DNA of 64,000 nt from Amoebophrya sp. A120 (lineage: Eukaryota > Protista > Dinoflagellata): contig CAJINV010000015.1 of the NCBI GenBank assembly GCA_905178155.1, forward strand, positions 1,035,907 to 1,099,906, written 5' to 3'. Positions 2,116 through 61,181 of the stretch are shown in pieces. The notes beneath the pieces are model-generated. The model was not told where the DNA came from, did not search any database, and was given only the letters and a program-made list of their open reading frames with translations. The translations under genes and the position numbers were made by a program. Each line of letters begins with the position of its first letter. Position 1 is the stretch's first letter.

Positions 2116-3902
2116 TTACTTCTTCAGGCGGGGGATCAGGTCACCGATCTTCTTGCAGCACCCGCACGCCGGCTTGAAGTCGGCCCTGTGTGATCAGAGG
2201 TTAAGGGTTTAGGAGTTTGCACAACGTTTTAGCATGACTTTTGATATTTCATTCGTGTGAACTTATTGATGTATCACAATGGTCACGTACTTCATATACA
2301 AACTTGCGCGATTGTCGTCTTGTGTCATGCCTTTGCCATGCATATCAATCCAAAACAAAAATGTATACATGCAGTTCAGGCCGCAGGAGTTCAACAGGCA
2401 CGGCACTTCGTCGTTGCACGGGATCGCGCACCGGGAGTCCAGGCAGAAGCACTGGTTCTTGCACTCCAGGATCTCCTGCGGGATCTTCCAGTAACTGTAG
2501 TTTTTTTGTTTAATCGTGTTTACTACCCTTGTTGTAATTCCAAGTTGTTTGGAAACGATATCACCCATCTTAGTTATACGAAATAGAAATACGCATTATA
2601 AAAAACGCTCGTAAAATTATGCATGTGTGTGACAAAGGGGGAAGATACCGATAGACATAGATCAAATTATCTAAAAAATTTAAGTACCGCTGCTGCTCGA
2701 CGACGGCGCAGAACCGCTTGTTCTCATCCTTGCAGTATCAAATGCAAAAATGTCTGGGTCTGGAAGAGTGCGCGACTTGTCATGCAGATTTTTCATGACT
2801 CATGAGGTCTGGAATCGAGAAACGAGCATGACAGATTCTGTAGAGACCTCTGCCATGCCTGTCCCGCATGAGAAGCTGCCTCGCAACCAGGTCCAAAGAG
2901 GACAACTTTTGGTAGGCATGCAACACAGATTTTTACAGGATGCGGACTTAGCATGACAAGGGGCGACCTTCCAGACCCAGACATATTTGCAATGCATATG
3001 CAGTCCAACGGCTTGCAGCACGCCTGACGCTGCTGGATGAACAGCAGGGTACCGTCGGCCTGGCACCCAATGCAGGCCGGAAAGGCACAGTACAGGGACG
3101 TGATGGCGCAGATAGAACCGTTGCAGGGACTGTGGTTTCAGATAATTCAGTTCATTTTTATAATGTCATCAAATTTTTCATGCACGACAGGTGGAAGGAA
3201 CCAAGATTTAAAAAACAGTCACTGTCTACTTCAACTTCTCCGTGCAACCACGCATGAGAAATAAACGCTTCTTTGATGCAAAAAACAAAATGACAACAGT
3301 ACACTAAGTCCTCGGTCTTGACGGCGGACTGATCACGGTTGTCCTCCGCGGCGTGGCAACCCTCGGAGAAGTATGAAATTGAAAACAGGTGGGTGGTATC
3401 ACATTTTCCATACGCTTATGCTATTGCTACTGAATATCGTGCATGGCAAGGGATCGCTACGAAGCACACCACGTTCGCATAGGAAATAATCCGAAGCCCC
3501 AGCCCGTGTAAAGTAGAAACTTTGTCATCATGCGTCCATGTCTGTGCACAGTACGTATCAGCAATTCAAGCTGCAACACTACCCACAATTTTTTCTACGT
3601 TCCATACGAAGTTGCAGCGGGCGACCTGGTCCATGTCCATGGAGCACAAGTTCGGCAGGCGGTGGGATTCCATGTCTGTAGAAGATTTAATGTTTTTTTG
3701 TTTGTCATGCGAAAACGAAAAGATAGAACAAAACTGTCATGCTATCTCTGCTTTGCATAAAACAAAAGAACGTACTAATACCGTGCTGCAGCGGCACTTC
3801 CAGAGCCATGGCGGCCTTCACCGTTTCCTGCGCGGCCTGCATCTCCAGGTCCATGGGCGTCTCGTGACGCATGTTCACCATCTCTTGGGAGGGAGCCTGC
3901 AT
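2116..3902 (-). CDS. Cysteine-rich protein, paralog 1 (multi-exon)
   Basis: Manual splicing gives MQAPSQEMVNM...SEGCHAAEDNRDQSAVKTEDLVPCNGSICAITSLYCAFPACIGCQADGTLLFIQQRQACCKPLDCKDENKRFC...YWKIPQEILECKNQCFCLDSRCAIPCNDEVPCLLNSCGLN...CGCCKKIGDLIPRLKK*. It has GT-AG introns plus two introners and is collinear with the gene at 6148-7915. Confidence 0.8.
2736..2998. mobile_element. Introner family A (TIR core tgtctgggtctggaag)
   Basis: TSD tgcag on both sides; tatcaaatgcaaaaatgtctgggtctggaag ... cttccagacccagacatatttgcaatgcata; excision restores LDC/KDENK. Confidence 0.92.
3372..3606. mobile_element. Degenerate introner
   Basis: tatgaaattgaaaa...ttccata; TSD agaag/cgaag; weak IR; excision restores CNF/SEGCH. 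Confidence 0.65.
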
Positions 3903-6147: not shown

Positions 6148-7915
6148 TTACTTCTTGTCATTACCAGTGATGGCGCCGAGCTGTTTTGTTCGATTCAGAA
6201 GGCGATCTTTTATGTACCTATCATCCGTAAAAACACTGTATGCAAAAACTACATCACAGAACCCTTTCCTCTTGCGAAAAACAGCATGACAAATTTTCAA
6301 AAATACCTTCTTGCAGCAGCCGGTGGTGGGGAAGCAGTTGATGCCCATCATGTTCACGATCATCGGCACATCCTTGGTGCACGGCAGGGTATGGAACGGA
6401 AAAAAACTTTCCGAAGTTTGACCTTCTGTAAACTTGTCAACTACATGCGGAACAACTCCACCAAGTGAAAGAACCGATGGTCTTGTTTCCATCTACGGCA
6501 CAGAGTCGTCGTGTTCTTCTTGGGTATAATACTTCTGTTTTCGGATCTTCTTCTTTCTCTGCATCATCAACATACATGGGAATAACTTATCCGCTGAACA
6601 AGTTTTATGGCCAAACCTCGTGGGAAACTGGTGATCACACTCGCGTACAGGGCCGCGCGGACGTCGATGCAGAAGCACTGCTGGTTGCACTGCACCAGGG
6701 TGCGGGGCTGCATCAGGTACCTGAAGAATCAAAAATATTTAAAATTCCAAACTTGGAGGACTGCGTGGAAAAAATCTTCATTCCTCGACTTTTTCATCGT
6801 ATTTTCCATTGTGCAGAAACACAACAGTAGACCAAAGCCAGCATCTAACAGTAAAACCAAACCATCTAAATTCGATGTCGTGGAACAGAAAAGACTATCA
6901 AGAAAAAATCATCTCTGTAATTGATGTACATGTTGCAGTTATCGCAGGCGCAGCAGCGCTTCTCGGCGTCCTTGCAGTCCAGCGGCTTGCAGCATGCGAC
7001 AGTCTGCTGGCAGAACAGCACTTCGGATATGAACTGCAAAAGCATCGCACTAGTAGAAATCGCATGACAAATTCACTCAGCATGAGAAATACAATTTGTA
7101 ATGCTGTTTTCCCTTTGAAAATAGATCTGTCAATGTCATACATGATTGCCATTACTACGAGTACGATAACTTTTGCACAGGATATCGGAGTTACCGGAGC
7201 ACCCGATGCAGGCCGGGAAGGTGCAGTACAGGGACTCGATGCAGAACAGGCACCCGAAGCACGGACTGTTTTTTTAAATAAGGGGTAAAATGTCTCATGC
7301 TACACAGAACGATGAAGCAAACTTATTATCGAATTTGTCATGCGAATCTTGGAACGACAGTCATGTTTTTGATACAAATACCACAATAGTACTACATCAC
7401 ACTGATTAAAAATTGTTTTGGAAGTAGTAAGTACATCAGGTCGTTGGGGTCGGCAGCCGCGTCACCGGATTCGTTGGGCATGCAGTGGTATGCAATACAA
7501 ATTTACATCGATCTGGTAGTGAGTTCCCCCGAAGTGATTTTGCATCAAATCTAAATGCGTGACTAGCATGGCTGGACAATATCAATGTCGGGTACGGTTG
7601 GACTGCTCTAATTCTTCTTCTTCTCCTTTTTATCGAGAACCACCCAGATCGATGTTTTTTGCAGTGGATAAGTGGGTCCCCTCGCAGATCGTTGGGTACA
7701 GGTTCAAGCCCGGAGACATAGCTGTATTAAATGTGATTTTCGACAATTTCTCATGCGTTAAGTAAATCAGAATCACAATCTGTCATGCACATTTGTGTTC
7801 TACTGCAAGAACCAACCATTTGTAGTACTCAACAAGTTCCTATACCTGGCAACTTCTCACCCATGGCCTGTTGGGCCGGGCACTCCAGAGCCTGCGTCTT
7901 GATCATGTCAGCCAT
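6148..7915 (-). CDS. Cysteine-rich protein, paralog 2 (multi-exon)
   Basis: MADMIKTQALECPAQQ...CEGTHCMPNESGDAAADPNDLIPCFGCLFCIESLYCTFPACIGCSGNSEVLFCQQTVACCKPLDCKDAEKRCC...YLMQPRTLVQCNQQCFCIDVRAALPCTKDVPMIVNMMGINCFPTTGCCKK/LGAITGNDKK*. The Cys pattern matches paralog 1; the last exon is inferred. Confidence 0.8.
6390..6647. mobile_element. Degenerate introner
   Basis: TSD caggg; left end tatggaacggaaaa; excision restores RAAL/PCTKD. Confidence 0.7.
7028..7184. mobile_element. Introner family B (TIR core tgcaaaagYatcgYactMgta)
   Basis: TSD tcgga; tatgaactgcaaaagcatcg...gataacttttgcacaggata; excision restores GNSE/VLFC. Confidence 0.92.
7489..7670. mobile_element. Introner (IR acatcgatctgg)
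   Basis: TSD agtgg; TAT/ATA ends; IR acatcgatctgg/ccagatcgatgt; excision restores GTH/CMPNE. Confidence 0.8.
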
Positions 7916-11700: not shown

Positions 11701-14302
11701 TAGTGATGATCTTCTACCTGATCCTGGGGGGTTGTCTGGAGAATCTGCGTCAACATCTTGGGCAGCAGCAAGTCCACCTCCGCTTCCTTCTGCACGACAT
11801 TGAGGTGGCATAAAGAAGCCACTAGAAGTCCCCGCGGTCCTTCGGCTTGCTTGTAGGTCCTGCACGCCGGCGCTCTCCTGCTCCTGTCCAGTAGGTGTGG
11901 CCGACGGAGGTTCATCTTGGGCGGGCTTGGCACTCAGTTGCGAATATGCGTACTGCACAACCCACTCTAGATTCGGAAACACAAACAGGATTGTCTCCGG
12001 GTCTTGCTCCACTTTCGCTATCGCTCTCTTCACCAGAAGTTGCCTGCTCAAATTAGTACCTGCTGTATCTTGTTGTTCCGGATCAGAAATTCTAAACAGG
12101 TGCAGATGGACCTCGAGTTTCTGGTTGAAATCGTCTTCCGCCCGGATTTCTATCAGGCGCCAGAGGTAGGACATAGTAGTTGCACCGTCGGTTCTTGATT
12201 TTAGCGCAGCAGGGATCATTTCTCTTCTCGACGACACAGGGATCACCAGGTGCAGGGCTTGTAGGCCCAGCCGCGTCAGCAAAGATCCCCTGACGTCGGC
12301 CTTTTGCGCCGTTTCCGCCAGCCCTTCAAACAGCTTCTCCAAGATAAGCTCGCGGAGGTTGTGAATCCTTGTTAGCTCCGCCTCGATGGAGAGGTCTTCT
12401 TGAGGACTTGGCGTCTGACTTTTAGCGTCCCCTTCTGAAGAGCAACAATCCAACTATCAAGCGCAAAAGTGTCTGGGTCTGGAAGGTTGCCAGGTTTGTC
12501 ATGCATATTTTGCATGACCCAGGATGTCTGTAATGCATGATCTAGCATCACATGTTTTTAGAGGCCTTCTTGATGCCAACCCCGCATGACAAACTGGGCT
12601 CCTCTTGCTGGTCATGCAATACATATTTTTTAGAATGCAAAGTGAGCATCACAAGTTCCAACCTTCCAGACCCAGACGTATTTGCAATGCATACCAACAC
12701 AGCCTGAGCGAAATTTTCATCGTCCACTAACACAAATCCGGCACTGCGGTCTTCAAACGCGCCCTCAATCCAGATGTTCGATTTGGTTCTTTCGGCAGCC
12801 TTAGTTTGTTTGCCGGCGTAGTTAAAATTCGTGCTGCTGTCTCCATCGAAACTGACTTCATGTTCATTTTCTCGCGGTGGTCCTCCTCCTCCTTCTGGGA
12901 GAGCTCTTGAAGTAGACGTGGTAGACCCAATAGCAGCTGACAGCCCATGTAAGCACTGAAACAAATTTTCGTTGTTATCGCCACTCCCCGCACCACCGAG
13001 ATACAGGGCATCAGGTTCGAAGCCGAAGCCGATGTGCTCCGTCCGCAAGCGGTGGCCGAGTAGTTCGCGTTTGATCCGCTTTTTCGCCAGATGCGCGGAC
13101 AGCCACAGGTCGTCGTGAAGGGTGCAGGCTCGAGCCTGCAAAAAATGTTCATGATCTTCTGTAGAAGTAGGAGTTCTTGCCAAATCAAAACGACCCTTTG
13201 ATGTTCCGTAAGCACCACCAGGAGCAAGCACTTTCTCCTTCCGTACCAAAGATTCCAGGTCGAAAAAGTACCGTGACCACAAGACCCCGTGCACGCCCTC
13301 CAAAATCGTCGACCCCACGTAGGCGTAGACGTGCTGGCTCGCAGTGCCGGTGGCCCGGCCCGGGGTCACCTTGGTCATTGCGGTGGAAAGGAGATTTACC
13401 AACTCAGGATCGTATGTTTGATCGTCGTCTACCTGAAGAATCAGTGTGTCCGGGTCGTTTTTCTCGATCGTGAGAATCTGCAGCATGTGCGTGCTCGGGC
13501 CTCGGTCGCGGCAACGGACCAGGTAAAACTTTGTTCTTGGTGCGGAAGACAAACCGTGACCAACAACATCTTCCAGAGGAGCGTCAGCTTCTTCATCAAG
13601 TGTGTTTCCCGTTCCACTTCCGTCGCCGGATGTAGCTGCGTCCCGTGTAGAAGAAGTACCCTCCTGCGCGATAATTTCAAAAATTTTGACAGCATTCCGG
13701 TCGTGCAGAGCACGCGAACTCTGATCCTGCTGCAGCTCGTTGAGCAAATCAAAATCAGGTCCGCCTCTTGTGTCTACTTCTGCCTCCCGATTTTTATATT
13801 TCCGATCTATTCTGGTCGTCGTGGTCCCTGCCACCGGAAAAATACTAAACCTGTATCCACCATCGTCGTTATTCCAGAAGGAAGTTTTCCCATCCTTCGT
13901 TTTTTCGAAGTCATATTCCTCGTTATTCCTCAGAAACACCCAGGGGACGAAGAGGTAGACCGCGTCGAGCGGAACGGTTTGTTTGTGGAGGAGGGAATCC
14001 AAGCATGGTTTTAGCAAATGTAGTCTCTTCGGAGTGGTCGTCAGGGCCGCGACGATACGCGGCGATCGTGGTAATGATCTTCGGGTTAGTACAACTTGCG
14101 ATGCAGTGCTTGTCTGTGATGCGGTCCTTACAGCATTTTCTTTGTCCTCCGTGTCAGCGTGTCGTATCGCCTCGCGCAAGAGGATGCCGTCTCTCGTACC
14201 GGGAAGGTTATGGACGTCGATCCAGTCGGAGATTCGCTCTGCGTTTGAAGAGGAGCTAAAAACGGCGCCAAGGACGAGGAACGTCAAGAAAACAGAAATC
14301 AT
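8722..14302 (-). CDS. Large (~1780 aa) secreted/membrane protein with N-terminal GT-A-fold glycosyltransferase-like domain
   Basis: ORFs 12548-14455 and 8722-12453 join in frame (AQAVL/DCCSS) after introner removal. Signal-peptide-like MISVFLTFLVLGAVF; motifs IVAALTTTPKRL, DRGPSTH, QVDDDQTY (DxD-like) and HDDLWLS. Start codon uncertain. Confidence 0.7.
12455..12693. mobile_element. Introner family A
   Basis: TSD ccaac; family A TIRs. Confidence 0.92.
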
Positions 14303-15002
14303 GAAGTCGCGTGTAGTAGTTCTGAGCAGTACTAGGGCTACTGGGGACAAGAACATCCTGTTGTATTTACAATGGACATGGAGGCACTGAGGCATGCTCG
14401 TAGTTTCAACAACACCAAGAAAACATGATACTGATATTCGCGATCTGTTTACCAAGAGTAATGATCTTGCTCGTGATCAAGTTCGAGACCATATCCAGCA
14501 AAATATTAGAATGGTCTGAAGAAAAAGCACTGATATCGCTGCGCTTGCTCGGACACCAGACGGACGGGGCGCACATACGTCTCAGATCTTTTCGTGACGA
14601 CGACGCGCCTTTCTTGATCTACCATGCAAAAAAAAATGGCCCACAATGTAATGGCTCCTGGTGTACAGAGCCTCATCCAGAGGCATTGTCTCATCGATCC
14701 GGAACCGGATGGTCGAGATCGACGAACAAAACACGGTCTCAACTACACACTTACCGGACTTTTGCCAACAAGACACGCACCTTCTTTTTTTTTCAGGCTC
14801 CCGCACCCCCTCGGGCTAGTAGGTACGTGGTCCCAAAAGCATATAACGTGTCCCCAGGCGACTCCGCGCCAGAGGCGACTTTCCGATTTTGCATGCAAAA
14901 CAGAGTGAGCTCCATATCGGAAAGCCAGGGCACACATACAAACTACCTTCGGATCGGCTGAAGAAACTAGAGATAGGAGGGATGCGGGCCTCCGAAACAA
15001 AT

Positions 15003-20600: not shown

Positions 20601-20939
20601 TGTGCAAAAGTATCGCACTCGTACAAATGCAATTCTTGCATTACAAATCTTGTTTCCAAGGCAAATCTGCATTACAAATTTTATTTCTCATGCTGAGCAC
20701 ATACATGGATCTGAGTTCGTTTTCTCTCAGTTTTTGCGTAATTTTTCTCACAACTCTATTTTTCAAGCGCGAACAAGAAGAAAGCAAAGTTGCTAGGTTC
20801 TGTTTTTTCAAGTGCGTTGTGAAACTTCGGTCACTGCTTCACCTACTATTTTCAATCGGTCATGGATGCTGAGAAAATTTGTAATGCATTTGTACGAATA
20901 CGATACTTTTGCACCGGATACACTGTCGTGAGCGCCCAT
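17683..20939 (-). CDS. TCP1: T-complex protein 1 subunit alpha (CCT-alpha)
   Basis: [28 protein letters not shown]...[60 protein letters not shown]...KWKYPI...KSHGKS...[19 protein letters not shown]...[19 protein letters not shown]. Three introners and four GT-AG introns. Confidence 0.95.
18736..19050. mobile_element. Introner family F (TIR aaaa(c)gcccccacccc)
   Basis: TSD tcatg; excision restores the conserved CCT1 sequence [13 protein letters not shown]. Confidence 0.9.
20273..20546. mobile_element. Introner family A
   Basis: TSD tcgga; excision restores QDVR/SANV. Confidence 0.92.
20596..20920. mobile_element. Introner family B, enlarged by a ~165-bp insert
   Basis: TSD cactg; family B TIRs; about twice the usual family length. 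Confidence 0.88.
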
Positions 20940-44273: not shown

Positions 44274-45235
44274 CTACTTCTTCTGCTTGCCCGCGCGACC
44301 CAAGTCCTGCAGGTCGCTCGGCACCGCGTAGCTGCGCCGCAAAGCCGCCGCCGGGGGCCTGGCGTCGGCGTAGGTCATCCCTGGTGGGGGTCGCACACTG
44401 TACAGGTGTTTCTCGGCCGGCGAGAGGGTAGGCGTCGTGCGGAAAATAAATGTAGTACCAGCGCCACACGTGACAACACTAACACTTCGCGTTTTCTACG
44501 AAAATAGAGGCCCTCGCCTTTTGCAAAACGAAAACCAAAATAACAACGCAGTCAGATTCAGATAAATAAACACGGGTGGGGCGAGGGGCCGACTATAGGC
44601 AGCGCAGTTTTTATATATGAAAAGCGCGCCGGCGCCCAGGCATGACGCTGGTGCCTCAACATTACGCATGATACGCGTCAGCCGGATGAACTGGCCACCG
44701 TCACCGCTGCTGCAGTGGTATGCAATGCAAAAGCATCGCACAACTAGTATAAATTGCATTACAAATTCCCCCAGCATTACAAATTCAATTTGTAGTGCTG
44801 AGTGACCTCGAGAAATGCATAAATGCAATTACTACTACGGGTACGATACTTTTACACAGGATAAGTGGGCCCGGTACGCCGGCGCGTTGGCGACGAAGGA
44901 AAGTATGCAATGCAAAAGTATCGTACTCGTAGTAATCGCAGTTGTGCACTACAAATCTCCATCCAAAGGTAAAACAGCATGACAAATCTTATTTCTCATG
45001 ATGAGCAAATTTGTAATGCAATTCATACTAGTACGCTGCTTCTGCAATGCATAGAAAAGCATCGTGGCCCGTTCCATTGGATCGGGGGGCCAATACGAAT
45101 TTCGTATTGGCCCGCCGATGCAGCAGTGGAAACCAACCCTGGCGCGACCGCCGGCGTCTTCATCAGGCCAGCGCGGGTCATGAACGTCATCCGGTCGGCG
45201 CGCGGCTGCACGACGAATGTGTCTTGAGCGGCCAT
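44274..45235 (-). CDS. Hypothetical protein
   Basis: MAAQDTFVVQPRADRMTFMTRAGLMK...WNGPRCFS/FVANAPAYRAH/CSSGDGGQFIRLTRIMR reads through two introners. The 3' end is uncertain: a stop at 44496 if unspliced, or a further exon ending at 44274. Confidence 0.55.
44719..44863. mobile_element. Introner family B
   Basis: TSD agtgg. Confidence 0.9.
44904..45053. mobile_element. Introner family B
   Basis: TSD gaaag/gaaaa. Confidence 0.88.
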
Positions 45236-48200
45236 TTTAATATCGTTGTGGCAACAACTAGAATTTTTGAGGTGGCAGAGAAAAAATAGAACTAGAGCTC
45301 TACTACGACGAAGAAGAACCACCGGTATGACAAGTACGGGAGAGGCGCTCCCTTTACAACCCGAGCGAAAACAAAAACAAAAAAGTCAGGACCACTAAGT
45401 ACGGAGAAACAGATCCTCAACCTTGACCACACAGGGAACCAAAAAAAGATGATCTTTCACTGGGTGAGGAACAAAGAATGAAAGGCTAAGGATCCACAAA
45501 GTCAAAGACGGCGATACTCCATAATCTTAATTTTCAGGTGAGACAAACAAGAACCGATCCATTGGAACGGAGAGAAGGGTGAAACGGTACACGAGCGAAA
45601 GTCATCTTTGAACTGACCGAGGAGGGATCATGATCAACATTTTCATTTGCATCTGCAATCGCACCACGAAAAGTAGAAGCCGATCACTTCCGGAACAACA
45701 TAAGTAGAAGATACATCCCAAGCTCCATCTTGTCATTACGTTGTATGTTTGATGTTTATTTTGGAGTTCTGTATTCTCAAAAGTTGTTTTTCAGAGTCAG
45801 TATAGAAGAAATCAGGAATCAAAATCCGGCCTGGGCCTGCTTCATCTTGGTTCTAGAAAAATCGGCATAGCTGTAGTCATCAAAAACTTTTTCAACTAGA
45901 TTATAGTTTCTTCGAATTTTATTTAATCTTTGAGGTCGAGCTAGGCTCACATTTCCTGCAGAACCCTGGTTACGAATACCTAGTGGTATTGAGATTGCAA
46001 TACAAATACTACCTTGTCATCATCTTTTGTTCGTTTATGTTTTTGTTGTTGACCAATGGGTGCTACAATGAATCCGAATTCGGATCGCGTAAAGCTCCCA
46101 ACCAGTCGCGGTCTGCTTAGTTGCTTCAATCATCGTCCTCTTTGAGTATTGTTATCTGTACGAAAAAAAGTTTGGAAAATCTAGCTTCATCGCTATCTGT
46201 AGCTTCGATGTCCAGAGCAAAGAAAAAAACTTCAGTGTTGAGCATCAACATTCGCAACCCTTGTTGGCGAAAAAAATTCAAATTGAAAAATCAATATCAA
46301 AGCTTGATCTGCTTGGCCTACTGATGTAAGCTCTATTGCCAAAAAAAAAAATGGAAATCAAAAATCAGAGTTGGTACGCAAAAAAAAAGGAAATCTCCAA
46401 AAAAGCCTCAAAAGATCAAAAAGCGAGAAGAACCCCAGGTAAAGAACTTCCCCGGTCTAGTGTCGTGGACCGGCCTATAAATCTTCTTGCCTCCCATCCT
46501 GTAAGTCGACACCACCACGCGCTACTAGTACATGATCCTAGTACATGCTCCTCAGCGATGAAACGAAGCGGAAGTGCCGTCTTTCCGGGGGCCCACTAGC
46601 GGTTCATTCGCAGGCCGTGTCATCTGTCGTAGTGGCGCCGCTTCCTCGCCTGCTTCCTCTTCTTCCTCACTGTCAGAGCAGTCCATCAGCCCGGGCGGTG
46701 GGACTTTCTTCACCGATTGCAAATTTTGCAGCACAGCGTTTTCCGGTATGGTGGGCAGTAATTGCAGGAATCCAGACGATCGCCGACGCAGTGGCAAGCC
46801 ATAGCCACCCACTGTTTGATGTTGGCTGGAGTAGAAGGAATAAACGCACCAGAATGCAAAGCAAAATCACCACTGCTCGCCTTTTTATATCTCATCGCGA
46901 CTTATTGTTCGCTATATCGAATACGAGTAGACCGTGTAAGTATGTGTGTCCAGGAATAGATGATCTTATGCAGCTGCAGAAGACGATGAGATAGCTCGTC
47001 ATCACGCAATCATGGAGATTGTGCTTTCCATACTTCGATCTGCAGCATCCTCAGTTTGTTTGCGAAGGGACGATGAAGCGGCGGTCGAATCTTCAAATGT
47101 TGCGCTTCGAGTAACCAGAATGCCTAAACTTAGAGTTCTGCAGATTTGATTCTTGAAATTAGAATTTCTGAATCAATAAGTCTCACACCAACATCAAGTC
47201 GGCTGTACATGAGATCTGAAGAAGGAGGGTTAAACCAGCATCTTAATTATCAGACGAGTATACGAAGAAATAGAAAAACGACACGAATACGAAATGGGAT
47301 ACACACGTGATCGTCTCGACAACGGAACAAAAAAGGAACAGGAAGCAAATGAGATCAAGAAATGCAGCAAGTTGTGAATCACGGGATCTACTACAAAAGA
47401 AAGCAAATCAAATGCGAAAGCAAAACAAAAACTGCGTCTGTCGTAGGAGCATAGAGAAAAACGAAACGAGAAACGGAAGTAGATCTTCTGGGGATTCGTC
47501 TTGAAAAGGCGAACTTCCTATTCTATTTTGCAACAGCGACCACAAAAAAACGCTAGCAGCCCGTTGTTCCTTTGTGCTCTAGAATCACCGTACTACGTGT
47601 GAGACTCCCGATGTTCGTCTCGTCGAGCGAGTGCGAGATCCATGTCCAAAGAAATGCTGTACCGAACGAGCCACAGAAAGGCTTCATAATCAAAGTGATC
47701 ACTTGAAGAGGTAGGTGCAAAAAAAGAACGGAAATCAACATGTCTTGTTGCGCTGGAACAACCATTCCGCGCCTGTGGTCCTCGCGACGAGCTAGGTGCG
47801 CGTCTTTTTTCTTTTTCGCTCATGTATTGTTCATGTTCAATTATCGGTTTTGTCAGAAAAATTCGAGTCCCTGCCGCGGGGCTTCAGTATTGAGCAAAAT
47901 GTATTGAATGTGGTTGAATTCACGTGAATCGATGACACAATTTTTGTTCCACGACTCGTGTGACACTATCACGTGAGCAGCGCGACACGTCGTGCCGCAG
48001 TCGAGATTTCGGGGCTCCGTCCGCCAGAATCGGAGAAGCGTGCAGCACGAAGACCGTTTTTCCAAAGGTCCACTCCCCGTAGTCTACTTCACAGAGAGTT
48101 GTACAACGATGTATCGCCGACGCTGACCTGTTTCGGTTTCGAATTTATGCAGTTAATTGTGTCCTCTGTCGCGCATGTTCTTACATGACTGAATGGACGT

Positions 48201-48440
48201 GATACAATTATAAAGCAATCCATCGTGTGGTTTTTCATTGGTCGCGCACAAAAAAAATCTCCGTACACAACACATCTTCTACAAGTAGTGGGTAAATTGT
48301 ACCTTTCACGGTCGACGGAATTTTGACTGTTCTTCGCGTAGTGGTAGGTGAATCAGTGTTGTTTTCCTGCAGCAGATGAAGAAGTTCTTCTTGTTGTGTC
48401 GAGGTTTTTTGTTTGTTGTTGTCAAACGCGCCGTCTGTGC

Positions 48441-51400
48441 CTACGGCAGAATCGAAAACACCTTGAAAAAGTCCTCGTCCTGGGCAATGATCTCTGCACG
48501 GATTTTCTCAGCCTTTGCCATCGCCTCGTCCGCCTCCCTCAGAAGTCGCATCCTGTGTAAAAACGCCCCCACCCCAGAGCTGTCATGCAGATTTGCCGTG
48601 ACAGAAACATTTGTGATGCGCATCCCCATGACAAGCGTTTTCGATCGTGTTTGGGAATTTGTAATGCTGTACAGAGGACAAGCAGATCGATTTGTAATGC
48701 GGCTGTCCTTCCTAACTTGCACTACCTTACGCACTGCAACTTGTCATGCGTCACTTCGAAAACTCCTAGGTTTGTGTTGCAAAATGCCCATCGTGACTCT
48801 GGGGTGGGGACGTTTTTACCTAGGATAAATCGCTTGTTGTAGGTATCCTTCCTGTCGACCTTGTACGTCCACTGCAGTTGTATGCTCTGCAAAAGTATCG
48901 CACTCGTACAAATTGCGGTCATGCATGACAAATGTGATTTCTAAGCTAAATCAGCATGACCAATACCGCTTCTGCTATTGCCAAAATTTGTGATGCGAAT
49001 TATAAATATTGCTAGTACGATACTTTTGCAATGCATAAGTTGTTTTTTGTGTTTATTTGTTCCCCCTTTCATGCTCCCGTGCTTCAACTCGTCGAGCAGC
49101 TCCTCGTGTTTCGACGGATCCCTGATCTTCTCTAGCATCGCAAAGTCCACTGTGTCATTATGACATTCCTTCTGGTCACAGATGAGACAGTGAACGACAA
49201 TATGGATTGCAAAAATGTCTGGGTCTGGAAGGATGCAACTTGTGATGCTGCATTTGGGTATGGATTCATCTACAAAAATCTGTATTGCATGAACAGCAAA
49301 AGAGGTCCAGTTTTTGCGACGGCGAGAGGGTATTTCTCATGCGGTATAGGCATCAGGAAGCCCTCATAAAATCTGTGATGCTAGGGGATGCATCACAGAC
49401 ATCAGGGGTCATGCCAAAGCTGCATCACAAATCTCTGCATCCTTCCAGACCCAGACATTTTCGCATTTGATAGACAACCGTTTTGGCCTGCATGTACACT
49501 TCGTCATATATTCTGCGGAGCATCTATGAGAGCGCACAGCTCCCCCTCCCCCTCATTTGCTTTTGCATTGCATGAACAGCAATACAAACACCAGCACACG
49601 TGGAGCCTGTGCATGACAAACCCATGCGCCTAGTGCAGTACTGTTTGGGCTTCCCCAGGAATGTGTCATGCAAACAGTGCCACGAGGGACAGGGAGCGAC
49701 TGGATTTGCGGTTTTGCATGACAAATGAGGGGGAGGGGGAGTTCTTCACTGTCATAGCATCAACCAGGGCGCAGTGGGAAAGGGTCGGGCACAGGAGATG
49801 TACTTTTCTGGGGGAAATTGCTTGCCTGTTTTATGTATCCTGTGCAAAAGCATCGTACTCGTAGTAATCGCAGTTATGCATTACAAATCTAGTTGGTTAG
49901 GTAAATCCGCATTACAAATTTAATTTGCAATGCTGAGCCAATTTGTATTGCGATTACTATATATTATATTCATGCGAAAAAAGAGGTAGACAGAGGGTAA
50001 ACAAGAGGTGGCCGAGAGGTCAAAAAGAGGTCAAAAGAGGTAAAAAAGAGGTCGACAGAGGTGGAGAGGTGGCGCGGGACCCCTTTCGAGAGGGCCGGCG
50101 AGAGGGTGCGCGAGTATAGCCCGCCGAAGGACCCACCCTAAGGCGGCGCCTAAGTGCCTCAGAGGGTGCAGAGAGGTCAAAAAGAGGGGGCGCGAGAGTT
50201 CGACAGAGGTGGCGAGAGGTGGCGCGAATAAGGGGCGACCTCTCGCGGACCCTCTTGGCCACCTCTCGGCCACCTCTGTCGACCTCTACCCGCGAGTATA
50301 GCCGGATTATTAGCGGGGACCCCCAAAAGAGGCCAAAAAGAGGGTCTGCGAGAGGTCTGCGAGAGGGTAAAACACAAAGAAGCGGGCGCGAATCCGCATG
50401 GCACTACCCATATTTGGCACTGCAGGCCATTCGCGGAGCTGTTTTGTTCGGCGCCTTTCCGCGCCACCCTCTCGCGCCACCCTCTCGCGCACCCTCTCGC
50501 GCCACCCTCTCGCGCTACCCTCCCCCGCCGGGCGGTTTCTGTTCGCCCCCGGTGGTCTTTGCAGCTGCTCCCTGCGCAGAGCGCCCACAGGCGCGGGAAG
50601 CGCGCAAGTGGTCCTGCGGGTTGGCGCGGCGCAATGTGTTTCGTTGTGCATAGGCCCGCGGGGTTGTGGTCCTATCGGCAAACAGTCTTGCCCCGACCCA
50701 ACAGCCTTGCGCTCCGGCGGCAGCCGGAGCATGGCTGGTTTGTACTAGTGCGATGCTTTTGCAGTGCATATTATGTGACACATTCAGCTTCAGTTCCTTC
50801 ACGATATCGAAGACCTCCTGCCGCTTCTCGACCTGGGTTTTGTGCTTGGATTCCTTGTTGTGTTCGCAACTCCATTCCGTGGGTTTGTGTTTCGCGTTCC
50901 GGCACAACCGGCACTATCAACTGCAAAGCTGTCTGGGTCTGGAAACTTGTAATGCTGCGTTGGGAATATTGAATGCTCTGTAATGCACAGGCAAGCATGA
51001 GAAATATCTGCGCTTCTTTGTGTTGCGTTTTTCGCATGACAACCTGCGTTTTTGCATGATAGGCAAAAGGATCTCTTCTTGGACACGCATCACAAACTTT
51101 TTGGTCATGCCAGACAAGCATGACAAATCTCAAAATCTTCCAGAACCAGACATTTTTGCATTTGATAGGCACTTGAATTGGACGATGCCGGCGTTGTCCG
51201 AGGCACAGTAGCTGTTCATTTTCCCGTATCAAAAGTACAAAAAAGTTCGTCACGATCACTCATTGGGATGGGCATTGTCGCAATACAAAAAATGCCTGTC
51301 ATGCGTAAAAATGCATCACAGCCAAACTTCATACGGACTCTCTCTATAGAAGTGTTTCTGCAATACAAGGAAAAGTTGTGATGCTAAGAAAATTTGTAAT

Positions 51401-54400
51401 GCAAAACCTCCAAGCTAGTGACTGTGACAAACTTTTGTCTGTCCATATCTCGGGCCGCACAACCGCACAGTATCCGATGAGGTCCTGGTTGAGAAACAGC
51501 CGATTTTTCGTATGGAAGCGTCAGGATCGAAATCGACAAAGTCGAAATAATCTGTCATGCAGAAAATGCGACACAAAAAGTGACTCTATTGCAGAGAACA
51601 ACGCAAAGGAGGCAGATTGTAGTCCTGCTAAAAGTCAAGAATTGGGCTGGTGGCTAGCATGACAGAGGGGAGCTCTTTTGCCCTAAACCGCATGACATTG
51701 GTGGTCTACGGGCAGGACGTCCCGGTGGCACGACGGCCGATAAGCTTACAAATTCATTCATTCATTCACGACCCTCGCGAGTCAACGCACTTCCGATGGT
51801 GCATGCAGAAACACAAATGACAGATTCGCTTCCAGGACGAGGGAAATGCGCCATGCGCCGACTAAAAACTGTAGGTCTAACTGGCATCGATTTTGTGCAT
51901 CGCAAGTTTCTCGATTTTGTCGATTTCGATCGTGACACTCCCATACTTCGCCGTGTTGAAGTAGAGGAGATGTTCGTAGTCTTGGTACTTGTAGTACTTC
52001 AAAAAATTGTCGAAGTTCAGCTTGTTCAGCGTTTTCTATGAACTGCAAAAGCATCGCACTACGTATGAATTGCATGACAAATTTCCTCAGCATGAGAAAG
52101 AAAATTTGTAATGCGGATTTAACCTGAGAAAGAAATTTGTAATGCATGAATGCGATTAGTACGTGTGCGATACTTTTGCACAGGATATTTTCCGCGGGTC
52201 CACGACTTGACCGGTGTCCTTGTTCGGTGCGGTTTGCTTGTTTAGGTCGAACATTTGGTACTGGAGCTGCTTGTTCTTCTTCACCTCTTCCTTATCCCTG
52301 TCGGCCTGAAAATGCCAGCCCCGTTTCTGGTCCCACAAGGGTATCAAATGTAAAAGTGTCTGGGTCTGGAAGAATTCATGTTTGTCATGCTTGTCTGGCA
52401 TGACTCCTAAATCTGTCATGCACGTTACCCAAGAGCTCCGCTTTTCTGTGATGCAGAAGCGCAGTTTGTCATGCAGAATAGGCAACACCTAGGAGCTCAG
52501 AAACTTGTCATGCTGAGCCAGCATTTGTAGCCTCATCATGAGACGCCACCCAGCATCACAAGTTTCCAGACCCAGACACTTTTACATTTGATAAAGGGCT
52601 GACCGTGTCGATTCGTCCAGTAGTCCTTCATTCGGTTCTTGAACTTCCTCGCGCGGAGAAGCCGCGTGGTGCATGGGATTCTCAACTGTTACATTCTCAA
52701 CTACTGCTACATGAATTTGTGATGCAAGAATAGGAAAAGTAAAAAGAAGGAAGCCTGCTGCACCTCCCGCATTACAAATTTGGCACAGAGAAGTTTCATG
52801 CTTTTTAGTCCTTCAAAATAAATTTGTCATGCATACCCGACTGCGCCACATCGAAAACCTTTGCACCGTCGCCGCAAGCAGCTACGGCCGCAGGAGATCT
52901 AGGGTCAGAACCGCGAAAAACATCGCGAGTATTTCTTCATCCCCGGGCACTTATGTTATCTTTACCGTACTTCTCGCTAACACTGTATGAGCTGCTGCAG
53001 ACACACTGTGACAGGGAAAAACACAGGCGCCACAATACTAGAACCCACTTTCTAAATAGTATACGGAAAACTGGCAGGCACCTGTCGCACAAAAGAAATA
53101 GCAACAGGCGCGGGTACAGAGTCCGAGAAAGTTTTGGCTAGCTTACGAGGAGATTGCTGATTGAAAACCAACAATGCTCGTAGAAGGTGTCACAACTGGC
53201 GTCGACAGTTGTGAGAAGAGCGCACCTGATTGGCAAGACAGCGAAAACGGATTTACAGGCCGCGAAGCGTTCTCATGTGTGAAAACCTGCCAAACCGTCC
53301 GTAGCTCACCTTCTTCAAGCGTTCGTGGCCGCGAAGTCGTGGGCGTAGCATGATGAAAGGTAGACGGCTGGGCTTTCTCATCGAAGGCAGATTTCCGTCT
53401 GCGAGCATCTTCTTCAACAGCGGCCAGAATTCAGCTCGCGGAGAGGGTCGCCGTCCTCTCTCCGGGTTTCCGCTGTATGTCCTCTCGTGCCACCAACTAT
53501 CTCCGCCCCGGAATGGGGCTAGCCTAGCTCGCATCTATTGTGCGCCCTTAGCTCGCGATTGCGAGGCTAGGGAACAAGTCTCTATTGGACTTGTTGCTAT
53601 TGTGGCTAGCCCTCCCCCTCTGCTCGTCGGGAGAGAAGATTCGCACCGCTTCGGTTCCACTTGTCACGCACGTGCTAAATACCGCTTGGAACTGCCATCC
53701 GTCTGCCCTGGCTCTGCGCACCGAGAAGCCCCGGCGCCATCTGCTCCGTGCTCTCTCCCCTGGCTCTGGCTCGGCGCAAATGCTTTGCGCGGAGGAGTTG
53801 GCAGCAACGCATCTTTATTGCGTGCCCCTACACATCTTTATTGCGTGCTTACGGGAGCGAGCCATCTGGATTGCGGCTCACTGCTGCAAACTCCTAGCGC
53901 GCCGCCGCATTTGCAACCTACCTCCCTCCAGCGGGGGCCGCCTTCCTCACAGGTCCGCCCGTGCCGACCTGATTTATCGCTGACACCCCGGGTAGCCCAC
54001 CATCGCCGCGCCGTCGGCTGGTTAGTCCGGTACCATGGCGGTCGCTGCTGGGACGATCTCCGGCGCCGCCGTGTCTTGCTGACGATGTACAACTTGGGCG
54101 AATTCCCGTGGAAGAGTGCCCGCAGCCCCGCACAAAATCCAGTCGAGCCACCGTGCGCAGCGACACGGACACCAGCCCGCACATAATCCGCAGGACATTT
54201 TTCCAAGAGGAGCAGGAGCACACAGACGTAAGGGTCGCAGCTCTACTGCAGATCAGGAGAAAAGAATGCGAATGCTGAATAGCGGAAGAGAGAAAATAAG
54301 CAAAAACGAAAAATGTCGAGGAAACCTATTGACTACGTCGGGCCTCTAAACTACTGCAATCTGTAAAGGCTAATGGTATGCATTTACTCACGCAGAGGGT

Positions 54401-55054
54401 CGCTGTCGGAAAAATTAACTGTGCTCAGCGGATCCCCCCCACCACCGGGGCAGGGGTTGGCATATTAAGGATCTTGAGCCAAAATGGCTACGGAGTGGCT
54501 TTCTCGTGTGGATGCTCATGCTGATGTCGATCTCGATGTGGATTCTGCATTGCAAAACTTATGCAACAGTATGAGAATGTAACGTTTGAGAACTCCATAT
54601 GGTGGCTCTGCCGATCAGTAGGTCGGGGTGGATTTCAAAGCCGAAGTCATTCTTGCTGTTCTCTTTGTCCGCGAGGTACTCGGACGTGAACTCTGGGTCG
54701 ATGGGTTTCTGCGCAGGAAAGAGCTGCTTCTGGACTTGCCGCAGCTGCTGTTGCGCAGACCGACCTTTGGTTGTCAGGTCCAGCACCGAATATGCATTGC
54801 AAATGTATCGTCCTCGTAGTAATCCTAATGCTAATCCTAATCGCAGTCATGCAAAGTATACAAATCTCGTTTTCGTTCCCAAGGTATCCATTAAAGCAGC
54901 ATGGCAAATTCCATTTCTCATGCTGGGGAAATTTGCCATGCGACTTCCACTAGTACGATAACGAGACTTTTGCAATGCATACCGAGTCCGGTATGTCGAT
55001 GTCCCGCTCGGCCGCTTTTGCGCGGGTAGTGGTGGAAGCGGACGAGGACGGCAT
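48441..55054 (-). CDS. ~415-aa protein with putative U1/matrin-type C2H2 zinc fingers; 13 exons separated only by introners
   Basis: Removing 12 elements gives one open frame: MPSSSASTTT...GRATTRLLRARKFKNRMKDYW...FKCRLCRNAKHKPTEWSCEHNKESKHK...VHCLICDQKECH...TNKHKKQLQW...FFKVFSILP*. Confidence 0.8.
48549..48827. mobile_element. Introner family F
   Basis: TSD agtcg/aatcg; IR gtaaaaacgYccccaccccagag. Confidence 0.88.
48881..49037. mobile_element. Introner family B
   Basis: TSD agttg. Confidence 0.9.
49201..49472. mobile_element. Introner family A
   Basis: TSD gacaa. Confidence 0.92.
49525..49756. mobile_element. Introner family E (opposite orientation to 37704/38627)
   Basis: TSD gcatc. Confidence 0.9.
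49836..50770. mobile_element. Introner family B carrying ~0.78 kb repeat-rich cargo
   Basis: TSD ttatg; excision restores VSH/KTGK. Confidence 0.88.
49975..50520. repeat. Degenerate AGAGG(T/G) minisatellite in both orientations
   Basis: ~10-13-bp period units (caaaagaggt, gcgagaggg) and reverse-complement blocks (ccaccctctcgcg x4 at ~50464-50514). Confidence 0.8.
50915..51167. mobile_element. Introner family A
   Basis: TSD ggcac; it splits the CxxC motif. Confidence 0.92.
51227..51447. mobile_element. Introner (IR aaaagttYgtcac..tcact)
   Basis: TSD tcccg/tctcg. Confidence 0.82.
51511..51945. mobile_element. Introner (IR gatcgaaatcgacaaa.tcga), 435 bp
   Basis: TSD tttcg/cttcg; TAT/ATA ends. 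Confidence 0.87.
52037..52187. mobile_element. Introner family B
   Basis: TSD ttttc; close copy of 28508-28652. Confidence 0.92.
52342..52593. mobile_element. Introner family A
   Basis: TSD aaggg. Confidence 0.92.
52672..54599. mobile_element. Introner family D carrying a 1.66-kb spliced-leader-headed insert
   Basis: TSD tggtg; 52672-52832 and 54495-54599 align with the two halves of the intact copy at 27809-28044; excision restores GRAT/TRLL. Confidence 0.9.
54473..54494 (-). other. Perfect 22-nt dinoflagellate spliced leader (DinoSL), genomic copy
   Basis: The reverse complement reads TCCGTAGCCATTTTGGCTCAAG, matching the DCCGTAGCCATTTTGGCTCAAG consensus. It is followed by AT, not by a GT donor. 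Confidence 0.95.
54791..54981. mobile_element. Introner, family B-like
   Basis: TSD ccgaa/ccgag; excision restores IPDS/VLDL. Confidence 0.85.
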
Positions 55055-58012: not shown

Positions 58013-58224
58013 TATCCAAGAAAAAAACACCATCACAATCACACTTAGGAGGTTTTGCATCAGAAATTTCTCTCGCATGACAAATTTTTCTTGTAATGCA
58101 AAAACCCAAAGGGAAATCACCAATAACTCTTTACTGTGATGCATTTTTGCGCATGACAAAAATTTTAATTTTTGTATTGCAAAAATGCGCATAAGTGATT
58201 GTGATGGTGTTTTTTTCTTGAATA
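58013..58224. mobile_element. Introner in the probable 3' UTR of the aminotransferase gene
   Basis: TSD tcttg; ~29-bp perfect IR caagaaaaaaacaccatcacaatcactta; ~15 bp downstream of the stop codon. Confidence 0.9.
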
Positions 58225-58239
58225 TCTTGTTTTCTTCCT

Positions 58240-61181
58240 TTACAAACTCGAGCTGGGGTTTTTCACCGCTTCAATGCACTCCGCCAACGCGGCGGTCACC
58301 GTTTTCACGTTCATTTTGTTAGAGTTGTACCCCATGAGCCCGATCCGCCTATCAAAAGGAAAAATCCCCCCCCCCATATCGTAATGGAAATCTGTGATGC
58401 AGGATTTGTGTACACAAATCGGATTTGTCTTGCGGTAGAGGGCTGCAGACAGATACAAAGCCCGGAAAGGGGTGGCTTGGGGTAGGCACTTAGCATGGCA
58501 GACGTCTGCCCTAGTAGCGTAGCAGCATTACAAATCGCCTGCGAAATGCACCGGAGGCCCTGGCTTTGCTCTCTTGCAAGACAGACTGGTTGAGCTGGGC
58601 GACCTCAGATGGCACCCCCGTCCCGAATTTCTCTTGATTTTTTAAGATTTTTTTTTCAAAAAAAAAATTTGGCAGGCCACTCGTCGTCGGGTGCCAACGT
58701 TCGATGGCCAGCCGCGAAGCTAAGCTGCGCTATTCTACTAGACCTCTCTGGTTCTAGTGCTGCTTTTATTTGCAGCTTCTCCGCATTACAAATTGCTGCT
58801 TTCTTGTCTACTTCCAACGATCTTTTTCGGTATCCCTTAGAAGTGGCGACGTATCCTCACAAAAAGTGCTCACTTTTGATGGCCAAAAGTGAACTCCAAA
58901 AAAGTCATCTTTTCCCATTTTTACCTCAAAAAAGTCTCTCGATTTTCTAGAAGGTGAAACCGAAAAAGACCTGCAATAATTGAGAATATAAGTGGGAGAG
59001 GAGACTTTTTTCTAGACTTTTTTTTTGGGTATGCAAGGTCGGAAGACGAAACCGAGGAGGAAAAACAGGAGACTTTTTTGGGAGCTCAAAAGTGATCATT
59101 TTTGGCTTCCAAAAATGTGCACTTGTTGTGGGGAAAAGCTGATGCTTGCTTTGGTGAGTGTTTGATGAGTCCACCACACCAACTGGAATAGCATCGACGC
59201 AGCATGCCGTGCAGTTTCGACTCAGCAAACGAGTTAGGAATGCGTAGCCACCTTAGAAATTCACCTGACGACGTGAGTCGCAACCTTTTTCCCAGTGCAA
59301 AGTAGGACGAAAAATCCCAAAATTTTTTTTGAAATGATGATATTGGCAGTGTGCCCTTTAGCGGACTGCTGCGTGCTACTCCCTCCTCCAGCCCGAGAGC
59401 AGCTGAACGCCGATCTTCTATGACGAACAGTTTTTTTGAAAAAAAAATCTTAAAAAATTGGAAGAAATTTGGAAGACTTTTTTCATCTGAGCCGCCCAGC
59501 TCAAGACTGGATGTGTGACCACAAATTAGCATCACAAATTTCGAAAAGCGCGCCTTTTCGATATGGGGAGGGGGGATTTTTCCTCACAATACCGCCAGCA
59601 CTTTCCCTTCAAGCTCCCGAGCGCCGCCCCGATCTCGATGTCAAAGCGGTCCCGCATCAGCGCGATCACCTTCATGCCGTCGCCGCACCCGTCCGGGATT
59701 TTGATGGTTGTCAAAGACGGTAACCGGATCTTTTCATCCACGTACGGCTCGCACCCGATCTTTTTCAACTCCGCCCAAAAGTACTGCGCGTTGGCCAAAT
59801 GGCGCGCGTGGGAATTCTCGAGACCCTCCTCCGCGACCAGCGTAAGGGCTTCCCGCATCGCGTAGGCCATGGTGATCGGGGCCGTGTGGTGGTAGACGCG
59901 CGGGGCGTTACCCTCCACAACCATATACTTTTTTATCATGCTCATGTCCAGGTACCAATTTTTCACCTTGTCTTTCCGACTGTCCAGCTTTTTGAGCGCG
60001 CGCTCGCCGAGCGTGAGTGGGGCGATACCCGGGGGACAACCCATACCTGTTGTAGGTAGAAGTTTTTTTTTCACACACTGTAAGTACTAAATCACTGACT
60101 TGGTTGATGTGTCGTATTTCATCTGCATAGAAAGAACGAGCACCTACTCGTTCACGTGAGGAATCTGAATCTGAGGCGTGATCCACCGGTACCATATGAA
60201 TTTCAACTTGAATTTTTGGAACGAGTGATTAATTATGATATGATAAAGTAGAAATACATTTCTGCCCGCCCGCGTAGCAAATGTCGACCTTCCAATCGTC
60301 CAGGTGGATCGGCACCCCGCAGATACTTGTTACCGTATCCAGCATGAGGAGGCAGTCGTGTTTTCGGCACAGTTCGCCGATCTCGCCCACGTTAGGTTGC
60401 AGTGTACCTGTATTTATTCATTAAGGAAATTTGTATTGCGTCATTTCAACATGATCCATGTCTATATATGGGGTTGCGTTCACAATCACATGCGACCTCC
60501 CATGCATGGCAGAAAACGATATTACCTGTGCTGGTTTCGGCATGGCAGATCCAGAGCAGCTGTGGTTTGTATTTTTCCAGCCCGGCCGCTACTTCTTCCA
60601 CGGTAAAAACCTCGCCGTAGGGCTTGTCAATGCGCTCGATTTTGTCCGTATACCGTCCGTGCATGTCCACCGCCCGCTCGCCGAAATAACCGTTCACACA
60701 GATTAAGTGCGTGTCCCCAAACTCGGTGCAGTTTGCCACGCCGGCCTCCCACGCGGCGCACCCAGTCCCAGAGACCGGAACAGTAAACAGGTTTTGCGTT
60801 TGCCACATATACCTTTCATTATATTTCAATCTTTTAATTTGAGGCATCCATGGCGTTTATTTGCATGACTGACAGAGAACTCGATACGTCTAGTACCTTC
60901 TTCATCAGCACCACAAATTCATAATATTTTTCGATTGCCCAATAAATTTGTTCCATGCATGTTGCTATTTTCTTCACGTTGTACCTGAGCATGTGCTTGA
61001 TGTCTTCCACGATGCGCATAAAATCGGCGTCCAAGTGCCCCACCTGCTGCAGCGCCATGGCGGCGTGCACGCGTGGGTGCGCATTCTGCGGCCCCGGTCC
61101 GAGTAGCAGGCGTTTCACGGGAGCCAGCTGCGGCTTCACCAATTTGGTGTCCAGAAGCGGGTTTTTCACAAAAAGGCCCAT
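58240..61181 (-). CDS. AGXT: Alanine-glyoxylate / serine-pyruvate aminotransferase (class V PLP enzyme)
   Basis: LLLGPGP, VSGTGCAAWEA, NGYFGERA, HAETSTG, DTVTS, PLP lysine in GGQKCMGCPPG, WYLD, YHHTAPI, RLPSLTTI, IEIG...WR/IGLMGYNS; C-terminus -SSL. Confidence 0.93.
58350..59591. mobile_element. Introner family C carrying a nested TIR element
   Basis: TSD ccgcc; excision restores the conserved WR/IGLMG. Confidence 0.92.
58590..59504. mobile_element. Non-autonomous TIR/foldback DNA transposon (MITE-like), nested
   Basis: Ends ttgagctgggcgacctcagatg ... catctgagccgcccagctcaa with ~80 bp imperfect TIR; flanked by gactgg on both sides; further inverted blocks at ~58857-58910 and ~59070-59130. 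Confidence 0.85.

Follow-up and report, generated by a model that had tools for sequence, protein, structure and literature searches.

The window analysed here, a 64-kb stretch of the Amoebophrya sp. A120 genome, carries minus-strand genes and 49 elements with terminal inverted repeats (TIRs) and flanking duplications (TSDs), spread from position 2736 to 59591. Three such elements and four canonical introns lie in CCT-alpha (17713..20939, range start approximate; Pfam Cpn60_TCP1), ten and two in a P-type ATPase gene (22521..32086; Pfam E1-E2_ATPase), one (within the CDS) and three in a class-V aminotransferase gene (58240..61397), and twelve and one in a further gene (48085..55054, limits approximate), where a single transcript contig in each run omits them all. 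The window exons are 100% identical to annotated A120 proteins. Taking out each element with one TSD copy restored the coding sequences: the spliced CCT-alpha model was identical and gapless to A120 protein P0001 over 535 aa (100%) and 85–90% identical to two orthologs, a 2293-aa frame opened in the ATPase gene once its ten elements were removed, and the aminotransferase yielded an open frame of 469 aa. Pfam matches and open frames confirm CCT-alpha as named in the initial annotation and support a P-type ATPase and a class-V aminotransferase where it named a P5-ATPase and AGXT; the CCT-alpha model confirms its proposal that such removal restores the protein.

We scanned the whole 64 kb for TAT...ATA ends that formed part of a TIR and were flanked by a 5-bp duplication. 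This returned 48 candidate pairs, corresponding to 42 non-overlapping elements, as opposed to 1–2 matches in each of three block-shuffled controls, every one with 2 TSD mismatches; seven elements added by inspection gave the final 49, close to the roughly 50 first proposed. Lengths ranged from 145 to 435 nt (n = 45) and, for the insert-bearing copies, from 935 to 2051 nt (n = 4). TSDs were perfect in 34/49 elements and imperfect in 15, and AAA occupied positions 11–13 at 37 and 38 of 49 ends. BLAST clustering resolved five multi-copy families (15, 13, 3, 2 and 2 members) and left 14 elements as singletons; grouping by TIR type gives about eight, in line with the eight or more families claimed initially. 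Both orientations occur, as had been noted, in the two large families (8+/7− and 8+/5−) and between the copies at 37704 and 49525 and at 30505 and 50915. Every one of the 45 folded elements paired its ends (≥12 pairs), and in 35 of them TAT:ATA was paired throughout. Pfam returned nothing for eight ORFs within the inserts of three long elements (the 33786 insert not among them), including no transposase, nor for nine ORFs of a GC-rich stretch at 14.8–17.3 kb, and Rfam returned nothing in the window. With a TIR, a fixed-length TSD and no coding capacity, the elements are non-autonomous, MITE-like introners.

The gene strand is taken as minus throughout. Between 2736 and 20920, the scan placed family A introners at 2736..2998 and, within a 1836-aa frame, at 12455..12693 (both leaving open frames upon removal), a family B copy at 7028..7184 (assigned by clustering), a singleton at 7489..7670 and, in agreement with the spliced model, the CCT-alpha introners at 18736..19050, 20273..20546 (family A) and 20596..20920 (family B). 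Inspection added two diverged introners whose removal leaves an open frame: 3372..3606, with a TSD mismatch at gene-sense position 5, and 6390..6647, a hybrid joining a canonical-looking G-TAC donor to a non-AG end. Within the ATPase gene, RNA joints were obtained for 23455..23769, 24470..24627 (family B), 24763..25027 (family A), 26565..26714, 27087..27236 (both family B), 27809..28044, 28508..28652 (family B) and 28711..28971 (family A); for two scanned family A copies, 30505..30763 and 31059..31320, the skip is deduced from contig coordinates.

Protein comparison covers the scanned introners at 33786..35836 (2051 nt with an internal insert; absent from annotated protein P0121), 35960..36172, 37514..37679 (family B), 37704..37928 (family E, by clustering), 38304..38554 (family A), 40304..40453 (family B) and 40548..40799 (family A), as well as 38010..38297, which has E-like ends and was found by inspection. 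Only 6 nt (38298..38303) separate two of these introners; under the fixed register described below, protein comparison and end analysis reduce this spacer to an exon of 1 nt (38299). Annotated proteins also inform on 38627..38843 (family E), 41658..41919 (found by inspection), 42439..42589 (family B) and 42673..42845 (5′ end TAG), and junction analysis on the scanned copies at 39650..39909 (A-type ends, 3′ end ATG) and 42889..43150 (family A). Two putative family B introners from the scan, 44719..44863 and 44904..45053, are assigned to the minus strand nominally. RNA joints were again available for 48549..48827 (3′ end ATG; 4/4 runs), 48881..49037 (family B), 49201..49472 (family A), 49525..49756 (family E), 49836..50770 (family B, 935 nt with insert, skipped whole), 50915..51167 (family A), 51227..51447, 51511..51945, 52037..52187 (family B), 52342..52593 (family A), 52672..54599 (1928 nt with insert, 3′ end ATG, skipped whole) and 54791..54981 (family B). 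The aminotransferase gene holds the scanned 1242-nt, insert-bearing introner at 58350..59591, and a putative one, also scanned, lies downstream of its stop (58013..58224).

These elements are the published A120 introners, in keeping with the match to Amoebophrya introners drawn by the initial annotation: genome and end motif are the same, and the class is already known because Farhat et al. (2021, PMC7789003) described introners, including TAT-N7-AAA, for this genome. In the accessible parts of that paper, inverted-repeat motifs begin with TAT, seven variable nt and at least three A, direct repeats measure 3–5 nt (with four nt upstream from the 5′ end in the commonest), and introners are RNA-seq supported with no transposase inside, nor one in A120. 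The window elements share the TAT-N7-AAA ends, a 5-bp repeat, the repeated families, removal from RNA and the non-canonical ends. Farhat et al. left the splicing mechanism open and described splice sites whose position with respect to the hairpin varies (Fig. 3 legend) or is unknown, whereas one register fits all informative junctions here and aligns TAT with the canonical donor. Gozashti et al. (2025, PMC12130899) list 58 A120 families, and the two rows available to us are of TIR DNA type with mostly non-canonical sites, marked ‘co-opt both’; the portions available to us contain no splicing mechanism, and their ORF-bearing family 38 has no counterpart in the window (0 Pfam hits in the eight insert ORFs). 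Neither a fixed register nor a spliceosomal test in Amoebophrya was found in the accessible literature; Farhat figures 3 and S19–S25, most Gozashti rows and further supplements may bear on the point.

No element had GT-AG termini in any register yielding the same mRNA (0/49), as originally stated for the copies then examined. Sliding reaches an AT-AC, GA-AG or GC-AG register in 5/49, including a single GC-AG, the one instance of canonical U2 termini (GT-AG/GC-AG). A GC-AG reading of 42673 with its end at 42841 was rejected, as the annotated protein sets the end at 42845; family clustering and the canonical-intron comparison used the former coordinate, end statistics the latter. Among the junctions listed, which do not include the three CCT-alpha elements, transcript contigs skipped the element plus 5 nt at 20/20, in both element orientations; these are assembled contigs from two samples of one study, taken as RNA by guess, which do skip canonical introns. 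The target is restored, given that element and 5 nt are absent from transcripts, and the highest-depth contig of each gene lacked all listed elements. DNA contigs, by contrast, retained them: run X1 passed from exon into element at depth 22–29 at both kinds of border, with depth 0 for all ten RNA joints listed, a count that is incomplete and made on contigs, which drop rare variants. In raw-read run X11, 156 partial reads fell on element ends without exon cover, and metatranscriptome X9 contained short pieces. The contig data support non-GT-AG, orientation-independent removal of the element plus one TSD length, and place it at the RNA level, where the initial annotation had left DNA and RNA side by side.

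To define the cut, we let the register be the number of upstream TSD nucleotides kept, which mismatched TSD copies make informative. Register 4 fitted 20/20 RNA junctions listed, and registers 0, 1, 2, 3 and 5 fitted 15, 17, 18, 19 and 17. Eight RNA junctions were informative, allowing at most 4 kept nucleotides (23455, 24763 and 51511) or at least 1 (24470, 54791), 2 (27087), 3 (51227) or 4 (48549). Four junctions in annotated A120 proteins also fitted register 4 (38627, at most 4; 42439, at least 1; 41658, at least 3; 42673, at least 4), so that all twelve are compatible with the intron N-TAT...ATA-NNNN. Were registers independent and random, the chance of such a fit would be 0.045 for RNA and 0.005 with proteins, uncorrected for six possible registers; the lower limit of 4 is set by a single junction of each kind, 48549 for RNA and 42673 for annotated proteins. 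A single, fixed cut position accommodates all informative junctions. The initial annotation had the TIR hairpin plus TSD define the junction. It is not the direct repeat formed by the TSD that does so, given that 15/49 are imperfect, that 41658 is absent from the annotated protein despite 3/5 mismatches and that the cut keeps a constant distance from the ends of the element. An edge bias of TSD mismatches (window 11/17, p = 0.035) was rejected after 172 outside elements gave 9 edge, 11 next and 4 centre mismatches. Nor was there target-site selection for G or AG, with GT-AG in the fixed register in 4/110 outside elements (about 2 expected).

The fixed register places TAT on donor positions +2 to +4, and the elements carry TAT there in 47/49 cases, compared with TAY in 18/19 canonical donors of the window. 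The latter read GTAY in 18/19; where RNA or conserved proteins pin the donor down, 9/10 do so, and a further GTAT comes on top. At +2 to +4 the elements thus resemble the genome's canonical donors. Intron +1 was random (A13 C14 G12 T10), as were the last two nucleotides. Positions +2/+3 were changed in 0/159 elements (0/49 in the window, 0/110 oriented elements of another assembly), and the mirror acceptor positions deviated in 7/159 (3 in the window, 4 outside; p = 0.016). One element of undecided strand, L018, would break +3 on a minus-strand reading, and the asymmetry would then drop to 1 vs 7. An internal GCATGACAAA-type motif, not found in the accessible text of Farhat et al. (PMC7789003), is common to elements and canonical introns. 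The adenosine at −7 was invariant in window elements, and no branch site is established, as it deviates in 2/110 outside and only 10/19 canonical introns have A there. An excess of G-U over A-C in the stems (53 vs 32 in the window) was rejected as evidence, outside elements showing 64 vs 83. In Table S4 of Farhat et al. (PMC7789003), T occupies +2 in 9/9 listed top junctions per strain (TT-NN in A25, NT-NN in A120). These placements may reflect aligner preference.

What removes the elements is probably A120's own U2-type spliceosome, U1-less and, as we infer, having dropped the G+1 and AG checks. In the available text of Farhat et al. (PMC7789003), all but 6 of 89 spliceosome proteins are present in A120, U2, U4, U5 and U6 are reported, and U1 was not found. 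The ‘non-canonical excision system’ of the initial annotation holds for removal outside GT-AG; a system apart from the spliceosome is not needed, as TAT at +2 to +4 reproduces the canonical donor. The spliceosome reading is likely yet putative.

A less likely candidate for the same fixed register is a non-spliceosomal, structure-guided cut-and-ligate machine that releases circles, as proposed for Euglena, with TAT being only the transposase end. The universal end pairing and the lack of a G+1, AG or branch consensus would suit such a machine, and Euglena nonconventional introns (accessible parts of PMC12501133 and PMC11282704) resemble the elements in their TIR stem, TSD-like slidable borders, proposed MITE origin and similar offset geometry (5′-N3CDG.../...CH′GN5-6), the stem being offset from both cuts. 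They differ in their signature (N3CDG/CH′GN5-6|R), rare hybrids and the circle release and non-spliceosomal proteins proposed for them, whereas in A120 +4 is T in 47/49 elements and the stem starts at +2 with canonical donor letters. This match, the invariance of +2/+3 on the donor side only, the hybrid intron at 6390 and the motif shared with canonical introns argue against cut-and-ligate removal. No end-to-start element joint occurred among the rows listed, although contigs are a weak test for one. Also comparable are the TIR-transposon introns of Fritillaria borealis, for which the accessible sources (bioRxiv 10.1101/2025.08.15.670264, PMC11282704) describe removal by an altered U2-type spliceosome; there U1 is present and the element supplies the preferred ends, AG-AC and AG-AT, while in A120, where a spliceosome is our reading, the target supplies the terminal nucleotides, which can be any.

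It is improbable that the junction falls anywhere inside the direct repeat, whether because joining is imprecise or because reverse transcriptase switches template across the hairpin. A hairpin with a short direct repeat is a known template-switch setting (PMC4176328, as far as accessible), Farhat et al. call sites variable in the text available (PMC7789003), and most mismatches sit at TSD edges, positions for which register 4 and a longest-homology rule predict the same junction; however, the 48549 RNA uses the 2-nt block of homology instead of the longer one, 42673 behaves the same way in the annotated protein, each gene's highest-depth contig lacks all listed elements, and CCT-alpha could not be made otherwise. 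Least probable of all is DNA-level excision in some life stage, as with ciliate internal eliminated sequences, since for all the TIR/TSD anatomy and precise target restoration that would suit transcription from element-free DNA, the run X1 contigs retain the elements and the asymmetries follow the gene strand.

On the spliceosomal reading, a transposase acting in trans would insert a TIR element and duplicate 5 bp; element and 5 nt would then be lost as seen in transcript contigs, the cuts falling 1 nt 5′ of TAT and 4 nt 3′ of ATA (as the eight RNA and four annotated-protein junctions allow), setting TAT on +2 to +4, where the window's canonical donors have TAY. Either orientation would offer an N-U-A-U donor because both ends are TIRs. 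The TIR stem would join the ends in place of U1 and then open for U6 to take the donor, and the stem base, or else a branch adenosine within the terminal ATA, would serve as the reference point for the 3′ cut. U6 pairing at +2 to +4 would compete with the stem. TAT may also be a transposase end whose agreement with TAY is coincidental, at odds of roughly 1 in 32.

Tentatively, and with the chances close to balanced, we propose for A120 that a U1-less spliceosome reads an N-U-A-Y donor, dispenses with the checks on both terminal nucleotides and finds the acceptor by its distance of 4 nt from the RNA stem base, such that any TAT-ended transposon of up to 2 kb, in either orientation and at any site, even around a 1-nt exon, would become a perfect intron; the GCATGACAAA-type motif may mark introns. 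A single register makes the lariat location and the three donor letters testable and would permit re-annotation of A120 junctions that are ambiguous at present, tens of thousands in number. Removal by the spliceosome, if real, would show that the catalytic core functions even when the G+1/G-1 and AG contacts are missing, and would explain how a genome withstands transposons inserting on a massive scale into its essential genes.

Scanning the whole window for TAT...ATA ends that combine an inverted repeat with a duplicated 5-bp flank (TSD) returned 48 candidate pairs; each of three shuffles produced one or two poor matches. With cross-pairings taken out and seven more copies, diverged or in tandem, included, there were 49 elements spanning 2736 to 59591, with a perfect TSD in 34 and comprising five multi-copy families plus 14 singletons. 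As the initial annotation had proposed, none of the 49 yields GT-AG in any equivalent register, and the large families each hold elements in either orientation. Every host gene for which a model was built is on the minus strand (gene sense was set to minus for all 49 elements, by assumption only at 44719, 44904 and 58013). Three exons, among them one of CCT-alpha, match Amoebophrya sp. A120 proteins at 100% identity, and the text of Farhat et al. 2021 (PMC7789003) describes A120 inverted-repeat motifs (TAT, seven less-conserved nt, at least three A) bordered by direct repeats of 3-5 nt, counting 29,850 such introns. The elements are thus real and, in line with the initial annotation, already published for this same genome.

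Transcript contigs skip exactly the element plus 5 nt at 8/8 element joints among those listed for 17600-32200 and, across 48000-55150, at 12/12 elements in 4/4 runs (two samples, one study), including elements of 935 and 1928 nt with inserts. Families A and B are both skipped in either orientation, in agreement with orientation-independent removal. The contigs were labelled by guess, but they also skip canonical introns and so derive from RNA. DNA contigs continue through the exon-element borders (depth 22-29) and contain none of the listed skips, although contigs drop rare variants. Element removal happens at the RNA level. The expected restoration of protein sequence was likewise observed: the spliced CCT-alpha model is identical to the annotated protein P0001 over 535 aa (85-90% to orthologs), spliced models of the P-type ATPase and aminotransferase have frames of 2293 and 469 aa, and a 925-aa stretch spanning ten elements aligns gap-free to the annotated protein P0121. 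A 146-nt piece within a family A element (52406-52553) is missing from low-depth RNA contigs in 3/4 runs, probably reflecting another, internally deleted copy. Raw RNA run X11, which bears the same species label, carries ends of families A and B on 24465-31107 next to different flanks and covers no exon of the window; its source is perhaps a relative having the same families.

Where TSD copies differ, the mRNA reveals how many upstream TSD bases (u) are kept. RNA joints set u ≤4 at 23455, 24763 and 51511, and u ≥1 at 24470 and 54791, ≥2 at 27087, ≥3 at 51227 and ≥4 at 48549. The annotated proteins of A120 are not a source independent of RNA mapping; they set u ≤4 (38627), ≥1 (42439), ≥3 (41658) and ≥4 (42673). 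The sole value compatible with all 20 RNA joints is u=4, which makes the intron N-TAT...ATA-NNNN. Were registers random and independent among junctions, such a fit would arise with probability 0.045 (RNA) or 0.005 (all), before any correction for the six registers. The lower limit of 4 comes from two junctions. The proposal that the TSD defines the junction did not hold, in that an exact repeat is unnecessary: element 41658 has mismatches at 3/5 TSD positions. In the text of Farhat et al. 2021 (PMC7789003), splice position is described as variable, whereas here one register fits the informative junctions; the commonest repeat layout given there is four upstream nt. Our literature search, which for that paper covered the text, found no published report of a fixed register. 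At 38298-38303, 6 nt separate two introners and the fixed register leaves a 1-nt exon; P0121 is consistent with removal of both.

The 19 canonical introns, delimited via reading frame, RNA or conserved proteins, begin with GTAY in 18 cases and have TA at +2/+3 in all. Elements in register 4 have TA at +2/+3 in 49/49 and T at +4 in 47/49; position +1 and the final four nt are free to vary. One other, metagenome-derived assembly, whose strain may differ from A120, is rich in family A elements (~530 stretches estimated). From 151 of its loci we took 172 elements, of which 110 were oriented and 62, unoriented, were excluded; the codon model used was correct on 37/37 cases from the window on which it was trained. 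An open frame is left by 104 of the 110 (orientations 37 vs 41), and donor +2/+3 deviate 0 times against 4 at the mirror acceptor positions. Together with the window, the count is 0 vs 7 (p=0.016), or 1 vs 7 if the undecided locus L018 is counted against. A constraint acting on the DNA would affect both ends alike. T also occupies +2 in every top junction of both strains in Table S4 of Farhat et al. 2021 (PMC7789003), to which aligner preference may contribute. Two further window features failed replication in the outside elements, namely an excess of G-U pairs in the stem and a bias of TSD mismatches towards the edges; no branch site was established.

Donor positions +2 to +6 contact the U6 ACAGA box, and G+1 pairs with the acceptor G. 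Because the U6-facing letters from +2 are kept while terminal nucleotides are free, we favour a U2-type spliceosome that would retain the U6-facing donor letters and have lost the terminal checks, the TIR stem perhaps substituting for U1. A separate machine recognising a stem at a fixed offset, of Euglena type, fits the register equally well; we consider it the less likely of the two.

Both introns and elements also share a GCATGACAAA-type motif, defined by eye from this same window. Counted on both strands, it reaches 7.3 per kb in elements (45/49) and 3.4 per kb in canonical introns (9/19; 11 sites vs 0.18 in shuffles), for example 19948-20102 and 17824-18000, and is scarce in exons (0.2 per kb) and outside genes (0.1 per kb). 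A transposase-binding repeat that survived in old introns derived from elements is one possible reading, a mark of introns another.

As to mobilisation, the 5-bp TSD and TIRs point to a putative DDE-type transposase acting in trans. The seven variable nt at TIR positions 4-10 are drawn from a small variant set common to several families, and the two ends of one element often differ there, a sequence pattern that suggests end swapping or conversion. Long introners at 33786-35836, 49836-50770 (its insert has internal repeats), 52672-54599 and 58350-59591 carry unrelated inserts; whole removal is backed by RNA or protein for three of the four, and Pfam returned no domain in the three inserts scanned. 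The GT-AG-type intron at 33447-33743, whose annotated acceptor differs from ours, bears at one end what is left of a TIR of the 23455/58350 type and is possibly an old introner become canonical. A GC-rich 2.4-kb intergenic stretch (14800-17300) with many overlapping open frames, none matching Pfam, resembles a mobile element in decay. The genes at 2117-3900 and 6148-7915 are tandem paralogs coding for a small cysteine-rich protein; their introner insertions differ, and they partly share canonical intron positions.

The text of Farhat et al. 2021 (PMC7789003) reports that U1 snRNA was not found and leaves the splicing mechanism open; the fixed register is a refinement that renders this question testable.
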